Source: Octopus vulgaris (lineage: Eukaryota). Taken from it: 64,000 nucleotides of DNA. A program made the translations under genes and the position numbers. Every line of letters begins with the position of its first letter. Position 1 is the first letter of the stretch. The notes under the pieces are model-generated. The model was not told where the DNA came from. It saw only the letters and a program-made list of their open reading frames with translations, and did no database searches. The DNA lies in contig OX597814.1 of NCBI GenBank assembly GCA_951406725.2, positions 158,224,001-158,288,000 on the forward strand, read 5' to 3'. Of this stretch, positions 3,131-57,600 are shown piece by piece.

Positions 3131-3670
3131 TATATAGAGGGCATTATTACACATAAATTCCACACGCTATGAGGGACTTTTAAAGTCAAAACTACTAAAA
3201 TAAATAAACATATCGTACCGAATGCAACTCTCGAAGCAAGTCATTTAAAAACAGAATTCAGCTGCAGATCACCTGTGATTTAGTAATCAGTGCAGTGATT
3301 TGCAGTCTTTACTCCTCAGTGCAAGCATAATTCGAGATTTATAATGAATGAACAAAATCAGCATACCAGACGAACAACCATCGTATCCATCGTAGTATAT
3401 AGAACTGTTCACCCCTTATATATCTATGTAAATAGCGGGCTTTTTCGAATTGCATTTCGGTAACAACGTGCATATTCGGAATGAAAATTCAGTATTGAAT
3501 ATACTCCGGTTAAATTTATAATTTAAAAATAGGATAAAATCTTCATAAGAATCTATCATTACGTGTAATAATACCCTCCTTATAATATAAATAAATATAT
3601 GTAAGTGAAAATATTTGTGGATTTCTTCTCTTATGAGGTTTTTTCATATATATATATATATATATATATG

Positions 3671-4487
3671 TATAGAAATTAAATATAAAATATAAATTAC
3701 AAAGTGGGACAAGAACGCAAAAACACACAAGGAGACGACACAAAAAAACAGACGGGTCACTCGAAGCCTCTAATCTTCAGTCGGGAACCGGATCATCTTA
3801 GTAATTTCCGCTGTTTAATCTCGATATTACTCCGACCCGGCCAGCCCCAAGGAAAAACCAAGCCACAGGCATTGGATTTCTTGGAATGAGGGTCGAATTT
3901 ATACGGAACAAAGACAGAATGCCACACGAATATAAATACAAGAAACAAAAATATATATAAAAAAAAACAGAAATAAAAAACACGAATGGTGGACAGTACA
4001 AGGACAGGAGCGTCTTACGACTTTAGACAATTTTTAACTTATCTTGGCTGGCGTATATGAAAAAAGCCTTCAACGGCAAAAACGAAAACAACGTAAGCGT
4101 GGCCGCGATCAGGCCGAAATGACCAGTTTGAACGCGGTCACGTGAGAGCACGGAAGAAAGAGAAAGAAAAAAGAAAGGCAGGGAGCAAGGAATCAAAGAG
4201 AGAGGGAAAGAAAGGGACGAAGGCACCAGGGGAGAGAGAGAGAGAGAAGGGAGTAATAAGAGAGGGGAGAAGAAACAGGATTGGCACAGCAATAGAAATG
4301 ACGGTGCAAATAAGCTGGGGGAAGAATCAGAGGCAAGAAAAGAGAAAGACACATACTATAGAGAGAGTGTGTAAAGACGTCGTACAAGGTAAAAATGTGT
4401 AGTATACATAGGAGATAGGGTTACGTAACGCCGCAATAATATATGTATAGAAATCAAATATAAAATATAAATTACAAAGTGGGACAA
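3671..4487 (-). mobile_element. Non-autonomous PLE-like element with a ~45-bp terminal direct repeat, flanked by (TA)n
   Basis: TATAGAAAT(T/C)AAATATAAAATATAAATTACAAAGTGGGACAA occurs at 3671-3712 and ~4446-4487. Homologous to 25545-25997. Carries a rearranged HHR. Confidence 0.6.
3774..3848 (-). ncRNA. Rearranged (non-circularly permuted) hammerhead ribozyme, copy A
   Basis: Minus strand: GGGGCUGG-CCGGGUC-GGA-GUAA-UA^-UCGAGA-UUAAA-CAGCG-GAAA-UUAC-UAAGAU-GAUCCGG-U-UCCCGA-CUGAAGA. Predicted cut between 3825 and 3824. Confidence 0.7.
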
Positions 4488-5040
4488 ATATATATATATA
4501 TTTCGTTACACACACGCGCACACATATACACACATTGCTTAAACATATACATCACTCTTACACACATTCAATCTACTCGCCACTAATACTACCACGACAC
4601 TGGACACACACACACACTACTACTCAACACACGCTGGCACGCTACATACGCCCCCACCCCTTCCCCTCCCTCCCTTCCTCCTTCCTCCCTTTTCTCACTA
4701 CTGACCTTTGTCTGCTATGCTGCTGCTATGCTGACCACCGTCTCGCCCTACCTCACACGCCTACACACAGACGCACACACTAACACATACATATATTTTT
4801 TGTTTTTTTACCTCGCCTCACACACACACATACACACACGCACACGCACACACTCACACATACACACACATCTGTTGCGTTACCAACCTTGTCTCCACTC
4901 TTTTGCCTTTAAAAACCCACTTTGCTCTTGTTATCGTAAACATCCGCCTTTCACCATGTGCTTCTGCTAACACCAGCCGTTTTTTTCTCTATCTCCGTTG
5001 CCCGCTCCGGGATCTTTCTTTCTCTCTCTTCCTTCTTTAT

Positions 5041-6341: not shown

Positions 6342-7173
6342 GGACTAAACTAAACGCAAAAGAAATAGACAAAGAAAAATCCCAGCAATGGTTGAGAAGC
6401 TCAGGACTCAAAGCAGAAACAGAGGGATTTTTAATTGCAGCACAAGACCAAAGCCTCCCCACCAGAAATTACCAAAAACATGTAATGAAAAGAAATATTA
6501 CAAGTAACTGCAGAATATGTGGAGATGGACAAGAAACAATAAATCATATTATCTCTAGCTGCCCAGTCCTGGCTAAGAAGGAATATATTCACAGACATGA
6601 CAGAGTTGGAACCTACATACATTGGAAGCTATGCCAACATTATGGAATAACAACAGAAAAAAGATGGTATAGGCACACACCAGAAAAGGTCACAGAAAAC
6701 GAGAAAGCAACCATACTCTGGGATATGCCGATACACACAGATAGAGAAATTAAGGCTAACAGACCAGATATAGTTGTCAGAGATCATGGAGAAAAAAAAT
6801 GCTTTCTAATTGATGTATCAATACCGGCTGATGACAACGTGTCTCTAAAAGAAATGGAGAAACTCTCAAAATACAAAGACCTGGAAATAGAGGTAACTAG
6901 AATGTGGAATCTGAAAACAAACAATTCCTATCATAGTAGGTGCATTAGGCATGATAAAAAAATATTCAGACAAATACATAACAAAAACACCAGGACTTAC
7001 AAACACATATAACATACAGAAAATTGCACTACTAGGCACTGCACACATCCTACGCAGAACACTTTCCATACAATAACCATCAGAGCATCACAACAAATCA
7101 CAGCACATACCCAAGGCACACAGAGCTGTGCTCGGTAGTGAAGTGAAAGCACGCTATAAAAATAAAACTACTG
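6338..7173 (+). mobile_element. 5'-truncated R4/Dong-clade non-LTR retrotransposon (CCHC finger + restriction-like endonuclease) inserted in (TAA)n
   Basis: ORF 6392..7012 shows AAQDQ, CRIC-x5-ETINHIISSC, RHD, ILWD, RPDIV, LIDVSIP and EKLSKY. Frameshift near 6918, then IPIIVGALG...GTAHILR with a stop at ~7076. (TAA)n on both sides (6228-6338, 7174-7263), the known Dong target. Confidence 0.9.
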
Positions 7174-25545: not shown

Positions 25546-25997
25546 CAAAATGGCACAAGAACGCAAAACGTCCGGACAGTTAGGTGATACAAAAAGGAGA
25601 CAACAAAACAACCAGATAGACGATACAAAGAAACCAAGGAAGTTTTTTTTCTTCAGTCGAGTACCAGATTATCTTCGCAATTTCGGCTGATTATACACGA
25701 GATTGCTCCAATCTGGCCAGCCCCAAGGAAAAACTAAGCTAAAGGCATTAGATTCTTTGGAAGAATCAGCGATTATAAAGAAAAAAGGACAGAAAAAAGA
25801 GACAATGTGACACAAATACAAAAAAAAAAAAATACTAACATGACATAACAACATGTATTTTTCGAGTTAGGACGAATAAATTAAGCTGGCATGTGTGGAA
25901 ATAAAGCCTGACGGCAGGGATACAAGGTTTCACAGGCACAGGGAGGAATATTGATATTGCACGGAGAACGGCCAGAGCAAGAAAGAAAGATCAGAAG
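25545..25997 (-). mobile_element. Second member of the 3671-4487 family
   Basis: Shared CAAGAACGCAAAA, CTTCAGTCG, GGCCAGCCCCAAGGAAAAAC and GCTGGC...AAAGCCT blocks. Confidence 0.7.
25650..25724 (-). ncRNA. Rearranged hammerhead ribozyme, copy B
   Basis: GGGGCUGG-CCAGAUU-GGA-GCAA-UC^-UCGUGUA-UAA-UCAGCC-GAAA-UUGC-GAAGAU-AAUCUGG-UACUCGA-CUGAAGA. Predicted cut between 25701 and 25700. Confidence 0.75.
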
Positions 25998-43853: not shown

Positions 43854-43929
43854 ATATATATGTATAATGAAAAATGATTAAATACTACAAAACGTAGACG
43901 TAGGACAGACACAGAAGGACCCTAGTTCT

Positions 43930-43989
43930 TCATCAGTTATCGACCAAAATACTAACACTCAGTTTCATGCCTTTAACGATAAGACTGAG
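43930..43989 (-). ncRNA. Rearranged hammerhead ribozyme, copy D (perfect core and helices I/III)
   Basis: CUCAG-UC^-UUAUCG-UUAAA-GGCAU-GAAA-CUGAG-UGUUAGUAUUUUGGU-CGAUAA-CUGAUGA. Predicted cut between 43983 and 43982. Confidence 0.8.
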
Positions 43990-44298
43990 ATGGTGTCGCA
44001 AAATATATATCGTCTTTGTATCTTTCTTTCTCTCTCTCTCTCTCTCTCTCTCTCGTCTTCATATTTCTTTTCTAGCATCCCAACTTCCTCTCTCCTTCTC
44101 GTCTTCTCACTCGTAATTGTAGACCTTCTCCCTTCCTTCTTTCTCTGTTCTCTTTGTCTCTCTCTCTCTCTCTGTCTTTCCCGCTCTCACATCCTCCTTT
44201 CCTTTTATCTCCTGCCCACGCGTGATCCGTGACTAATTTGGTCAACTCGGAACCATCTGTGTGGACGGCCATGTTTGCGCTTATAAAATAATCTCACG

Positions 44299-57284: not shown

Positions 57285-57600
57285 GAAGACGCATGGCTCA
57301 GTGGTTAGAGTGTCGGACTCACAATCCTAAAATTGTGAGTTCGATTCCTGCACCGGGGTCTGTGTTATGTTCTTGAGCGAGAACTTATTTCACGTTGCTC
57401 CAGTTCACTCAACTATAGAAATAGGTTGCGACGTCACTGGTGCCAAGCTGTATTGGCCTTTGCCTTTCCCTTGGATAACATTGGTGGCGTGAAGAGGAGA
57501 GGCTGGTGTGCATGGGCGACTGCCGATCTTCCATAAACAACCTGGCCCGGACTTGTGATTTGGAAGGGAACTTTCTAGGTGTAATCCCATGCAGAATAAT
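57285..57600 (+). mobile_element. tRNA-derived SINE, family C
   Basis: A-box TGGCTCAGTGGTTAG and B-box GAGTTCGATTCC, then GTTCTTGAGC...ACTT core. Confidence 0.8.

Follow-up and report, generated by a model that had tools for sequence, protein, structure and literature searches.

The window, a 64,000-nucleotide stretch of Octopus vulgaris DNA, carries a rearranged hammerhead motif on its minus strand in copies A and B, which are members of high-copy repeats in the 2.8-Gb genome, and in a third, decayed copy. A first look gave 865 candidates for copy A and 2264 for copy B, of which 40 each were scored. The features are as follows.

3665..4434, minus: family-A unit, non-coding, about 770 nt, (TA)n-terminated; a non-autonomous Penelope-like repeat with head-to-tail and partial tandem copies
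4440..4488, minus: pseudo-LTR-like partial repeat, the 3' tail of the 5'-truncated preceding copy
3887..3899, minus: closing helix X, 5' strand, inner and outer parts; family mismatch at 3899 and 3887
3847..3884, minus: hairpin Y, directly against G10.1
3842..3846, minus: helix II, G10.1 strand (GGCUG) coming from the upstream side; subfamily C has the compensatory GGCCG/CGGCC
3834..3840, minus: stem I-II interaction helix, strand after helix II and a 1-nt G; same anatomy in the CSG alignment
3819..3830, minus: block S (helix III strand, AUA triplet, helix I strand); predicted cut 3825/3824
3801..3813, minus: block G (helix II strand, GAAA at 3808-3805, helix III strand); 3809 is G against the family's C11.1
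3788..3794, minus: stem I-II interaction helix, strand ahead of helix I
3774..3786, minus: helix I strand and CUGAAGA core (3780-3774)
3758..3773, minus: closing helix X, 3' strand, beginning at A9 through a U-U pair
25648..25774, minus: copy B (family B), laid out as copy A; triplet AUC with a predicted cut at 25701/25700; a deletion has removed outer helix X
43904..43995, minus: third copy, of the unrelated family H, decayed and 5'-truncated, same layout

Family A forms head-to-tail partial tandems, family B includes inverted copies, and the flanks are (TA)n. Families A, B and C have the hallmarks of Penelope-like elements: partial tandem pseudo-LTRs, inverted 5'-truncated copies and a (TA)n target. 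The family-A unit contains no RT ORF, and its full units are preceded by (TA)n or by the tail of another copy. No autonomous, RT-bearing partner of the three families was found, the search from the family-A 5' end giving non-coding units only; they presumably depend on a Naiad element. A scan of the window with the Rfam covariance models gave no hammerhead match at E ≤ 1, only microsatellite noise.

Two other features were seen in the window. An ORF of 206 aa (6392-7012, plus strand) carries an endonuclease-like motif and matches zf-RVT with an E value of 9e-6, which is just under the cut-off; judged by these it is the C-terminal fragment of a non-LTR retrotransposon. A weak, partial tRNA match (57294-57351, plus strand; 34.1 bits, model positions 8-63 of 71), with a microsatellite adjoining it, is possibly a tRNA-derived SINE.

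Strand order and the predicted junction inside block C

The strands of the motif follow the order X5'-Y-II'-1nt-Int'-S-G-Int-I'-CUGANGA-X3', with a short linker separating block S (III, NUH, I) from block G (II, GAAA, III). The features of a hammerhead core are present, namely CUGANGA, GAAA, the A15.1-U16.1 pair and an NUH triplet. Helices I, II and III covary and G10.1-C11.1 is kept, with copy A of the window alone being G-G. The G10.1 strand of helix II sits about 65-70 nt upstream of CUGANGA. The original prediction, that helix II is supplied from upstream, is borne out in both copies: GGCUG (3846-3842) pairs with CAGC(C/G) (3813-3809) in copy A, and GGCUGG with UCAGCC in copy B. Nor is any helix II longer than 1 bp available after CUGAAGA in families A, B and C, again as predicted. 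A helix II made from the downstream GAGGCU of copy A was rejected because it is not kept in B or C.

The pairing predicted for the CAGC/UCAGCC strand exists, but position 11.1 of copy A (3809) is a G, which leaves a G-G mismatch in helix II. This change is rare; CAGCC is found in 29 of 32 family-A matches, and contigs from public sequencing runs also give C at this position. Because of the C11.1-to-G change, copy A of the window is probably impaired.

In the available sections of Eckert 2023 (PMC10085705), hammerheads are built from blocks C, G and S in six defined block orders, and the CSG alignment runs interaction-I-CUGAUGA-II-G-interaction-S-linker-G. The model given there for types SGC and CSG assumes at most 1-2 nt between A9 and helix II. 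The octopus motif lacks this short link: a junction stands in its place and the helix II strand lies upstream. Blocks S, G and C come in that order from 5' to 3' and the stem I-II interaction helix is present, as in type SGC. Block C is not intact, since the stem II strand does not come right after CUGANGA, and block C is not both first and intact, as type CSG requires. The canonical types I, II and III were rejected, their block order being incompatible. The description that fits best is a type CSG/SGC circularly permuted, with the opening inside block C, between A9 and G10.1. The split block takes the motif out of strict membership of both types, and it likely works in a hammerhead-like way.

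The helix CCGGGUC/GAUCCGG of copy A (CCAGAUU/AAUCUGG in copy B) is present but is not the helix III extension it was taken for: because the window motif is a CSG circle opened between A9 and G10.1, it corresponds to the published stem I-II interaction helix. The GGA/AAGAU internal loop is conserved within the A/B/C superfamily but not beyond it. The upstream hairpin, CCAA/UUGG against CUAA/UUAG, is found on the minus strand as proposed. The closing helix exists in copy A but is not peculiar to it. Family B has UUUCUU/AAGAAA and CAUUCG/CGAAUG and retains the whole helix, part of which copy B has lost by deletion. All the named pairings lie on the minus strand, but nested MFE folding, which cannot represent pseudoknots, did not tell the two strands of copy A apart (z -1.27 for minus, -1.66 for plus). 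The strand assignment instead rests on the core motifs and on how the motif lies with respect to the RT ORFs of other families. The broader idea of a topology beyond simple reordering is supported as regards the junction and is refined here to the opened permutation.

The strands running from A9 to X, X to Y, Y to G10.1 and C11.1 to G12 would form a four-way junction, with helix II stacked beneath the G12-A9 pair and X stacked on Y. With helix II on the core and X on Y, a strand crossover would replace the A9-G10.1 phosphodiester. The first two positions of helix X beside A9 (alignment columns 16-17/131-133) are A-U pairs or U-U mismatches according to subfamily.

Conservation of the helices

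We parsed the collected genome loci and obtained 138 cores with helices I and III, a count that includes overlapping and truncated copies. A helix II of at least 5 bp could be formed upstream in 89 of these 138, with the canonical downstream strand in 3 and with a control window in 4. The predicted break between A9 and helix II, with a multi-helix junction instead, was found in every parsable family. The cleavage triplets among the 138 cores were AUC (36), AUA (31), GUC (30), GUA (22) and GUU (17). Two families are less clear: in family D a weak canonical helix II is possible (4 bp, two of them G-U), and in family F the helix II consensus is poor (3 bp and a poly-G tract).

Covariation was measured in an alignment of 20 copies of the A/B/C superfamily, hand-picked from 65 listed, with the structure derived from the same copies. 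The pairings were maintained, as the prediction required of a family alignment, with 91.9% of cells paired and double changes in 18 of 48 pairs. In helix II, U-A became C-G in three copies, and three further copies were unpaired there. None of 500 shuffles matched the observed covariation, a figure that cannot be read as a probability because the relatedness of the 20 copies inflates it, and slid controls paired in 27-48% of cells.

Wider variation was examined in 22 selected representatives, made up of the eight in-genome families and 14 of the 19 metagenomic loci that passed the parser. Family F was left out for its poor helix II, and L378, L392, L396, L397 and L403 as near-duplicate or mis-parsed. 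In several rows the first automatic parser had placed X, Y or the interaction helix wrongly, and it left 4 of 19 inputs unparsed. G10.1-C11.1 was present in 21 of the 22, with positions 10.2-10.5 variable, and elsewhere helices I, II, III, X and Y varied freely. The linkers A9-X, X-Y and Y-II were all zero nt in 14 of the 22, although the parser prefers short linkers. When the 60 upstream bases were shuffled, the combined X and Y junction scored above the shuffles in 19 of the 22, and no better than them in family A, family E and locus L406.

Pattern searches gave many more matches than reversed-pattern controls (296 vs 4, 3032 vs 16, 5063 vs 130 and 875 vs 212), and looser patterns uncovered many additional families.

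Host elements and the 5' ends of retrocopies

In Naiad elements, in non-LTR elements of the R2 superfamily and in non-coding repeats like those in the window, the distance from the motif to the 3' end is about 100-160 nt. The available text of Craig et al. 2021 (PMC8557442) reports no canonical hammerhead in Naiads, only 'HHR_core/half_core' strings that fit no descriptor. Reading the published consensus sequences by eye, as far as that source was available, we found the opened form in 9 of 54 (Bfor, Amil, Aacu, Anas, 2_Movir, Plae, Obim, Ovul and one unassigned entry). An intact type-CSG form was read by eye in six nematode and spider consensus sequences in the accessible part of File S5 (PMC8557442): two near Pristionchus entries, Nbra-1, Nbra-2, Hpol and Smim, the last two placed by file order. 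Published examples of this type number only two. The intact CSG Naiads suggest an origin of the opened form from a CSG ribozyme that was re-registered across a tandem junction. Neither form was seen by eye at the 3' ends of Naiad-1_Chem, Naiad-2_Chem, Naiad-1_Movir and Naiad_Omin, as given in the accessible file. The 3' end of Naiad-1_Movir looks like a permuted twister when compared by eye with the printed twister consensus, and the two Chem elements have another structured motif in common, both within the sequences available.

In octopus, family E is the 3' UTR of a Naiad RT, matching the available published consensus by eye. At 12 of 30 and 9 of 20 RT loci its motif lies downstream of the C-terminus of the Naiad RT and shares its strand; Pfam gave no RT match in the short Naiad RT fragments of family E loci. 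At 5 of 16 and 3 of 4 loci, families F and G trail the end of an ORF with a CCHC knuckle and a restriction-like endonuclease motif, and in family G the ORF match stops immediately before helix X. The motif stands right behind the ORF in R2-superfamily loci (L150, L169, L162-L168; L376-L423). The proteins of families F and G and of the metagenomic loci combine RT, CCHC and a PD..D/ExK C-terminus. Full-length relatives of the F and G ORF contain RVT_1, and among solved structures R2 proteins are the nearest to them. These are elements that we take to be 'HERO-like'. Family F (L137-L169) shows almost no truncation beside (TA)n and has a sharp end about 70 nt past the core; its integration pattern differs from that of families A-E.

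Among the metagenomic R2-superfamily tails, 19 of 48 pass the parser directly behind the ORF, which are not 19 independent lineages because the source assemblies are limited in number. Nine more show the motif loosely and five have less than 300 nt downstream. The canonical helix II is at most 2 bp in all 19. Only 1 of 120 viral pattern matches passed the parser, and it was weak and G-U-rich. The motif occurs in two unrelated classes of retroelement, which would mean either transfer or convergence.

The 5' ends of truncated copies accumulate at the bond equivalent to the predicted cut at 3825/3824. The sample was taken from 815 copies in which an AT-rich flank lies 31-40 nt upstream of CAGCC, and it comprises the first 100 of them. 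The apparent 5' start lay at or after the predicted cut in 86 of the 100 (null 24/62). Nineteen started exactly on the cut, about half of these junctions being readable one base later because the T may derive from (TA)n, and 14 started within the 19 positions upstream. An AUC microhomology 3 nt upstream, with equal weight under the null, had 2 starts against the 19 at the cut (p ~1e-4). All 19 are solo inserts of about 125-175 nt with a (TA)n end and no second unit, matching, as expected, what retrocopies of a putative 3' cleavage product would look like, and they count as indirect evidence that the RNA cleaves. Further pile-up peaks at 2 nt (25) and 6 nt (22) fall on AT microhomology. The family D listing, counted by eye, has most starts at or after the cut and no sharp peak, family F gave one match against one control, and four contig sets whose RNA origin was guessed had no usable ends or joints.

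Interpretation and relation to known systems

It seems likely that the motif is a hammerhead whose blocks follow the non-circular SGC/CSG order, with an opening between A9 and G10.1 that a predicted four-way junction closes, and that it self-cleaves retrotransposon RNA near its 3' end. We also think it probable, with somewhat less assurance, that this undescribed wiring is an active ribozyme with many thousands of copies in animal genomes, sited at the 3' ends of Naiad and R2-superfamily elements, explaining the 'missing' Naiad hammerheads and leaving its cut recorded in the 5' ends of retrocopies. The RNA would fold into a standard hammerhead core and cleave in cis after NUH, and the 3' product (about 145 nt) would be retrocopied into (TA)n as a by-product. 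Its most likely role would be the processing of tandem or read-through transcripts into units.

The truncation cliff could stem from RT stalling in folded RNA, and this bears on the best of the alternatives, in which the fold is real but catalysis has been lost, leaving a hammerhead-derived scaffold in the 3' UTR for the element's protein. The motif does sit in the 3' UTR, a region that R2-type proteins bind. The available text on the Penelope element of the anole (PMC11167929) describes a hammerhead whose cleavage is protein-assisted, which is dispensable for insertion in vitro and at whose cut no reads end. As that hammerhead is dispensable in vitro, cleavage need not be essential for mobility. 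A scaffold, however, would not account for the conservation of all catalytic core bases and NUH triplets in unrelated elements despite turnover of the helices, nor for a cliff that coincides with the scissile bond, and we regard this explanation as unlikely.

Still less probable is ordinary type-SGC cleavage, or cleavage by a dimer of tandem copies, with the upstream helix II and X/Y forming an alternative, perhaps inhibitory, fold. Tandem copies do occur and family D could form its 4-bp canonical helix II, but a canonical helix of at least 5 bp is available in only 3 of 138 cores, it is no longer than 2 bp in any metagenomic pass, and the full cis fold is present in solo copies and single-copy tails. 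That the pairings are a product of chance or of shared ancestry within a repeat family can practically be dismissed: the copies are related and copy A alone folds no better than shuffles, but this topology is found again, in sequences that are unrelated, across two classes of retroelement and several phyla.

If the self-cleaving reading is true, the wiring falls outside the six block orders thought to be exhaustive for the hammerhead, and a helical crossover can stand in for the A9-G10.1 bond. Naiad elements, which are reported to lack such a ribozyme, would then have one, and their apparent lack of a hammerhead would be explained. The accumulation of 5' ends of retrocopies on the scissile bond would be a genomic readout of ribozyme activity, and one open to direct testing.

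The motif shares its anatomy with the cleavage-proven CSG and SGC ribozymes, down to the one G that separates helix II from the interaction helix, as far as the available sections show (PMC10085705); unlike them it has a split block C with the X and Y junction at the break. The search patterns given there would miss the opened form because they require G directly after CUGAUGA(U). The SGC/CSG examples in those sections come from metatranscriptomes, metagenomes and one bacterium, and none from animal genomes (PMC10085705). The present families would move such non-circular permutations from rare metatranscriptome cases to abundant animal repeats. Full-text searches of the openly readable literature turned up no account of the opened wiring, none of an SGC/CSG ribozyme from an animal retroelement and none of a hammerhead in a HERO element. 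The accessible parts of the nearest reports go no further than small insertions in the core or 'additional helices' that are not specified (PMC13725137, PMC10162972, PMC6155905, PMC3088659, bioRxiv 10.64898/2026.07.22.740005).

Non-LTR retrozymes carry the usual type I motif in shorter monomers. The window family resembles them in having a non-coding tandem unit with one hammerhead per monomer, and an origin from PLE pseudo-LTRs has been proposed for them; it differs from animal retrozymes in its rearranged core, which the available text does not describe for these (bioRxiv 10.64898/2026.07.22.740005; PMC6155905). With Naiad elements, as described in the available sections of Craig et al. 2021 (PMC8557442), it shares (TA)n targets, partial tandem and inverted copies and a motif near the 3' end; unlike them, it has no ORF (N-terminal GIY-YIG and RT) and no partner that we could find.

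The R2-superfamily elements offer a different comparison. R2 elements have an HDV-like ribozyme at the 5' end, whereas the hammerhead motif of families F and G and of the metagenomic loci is at the 3' end. A retrotransposon superfamily that is used for gene insertion would thereby have a ribozyme at its 3' end, and cleavage there would separate the coding part from the priming tail.
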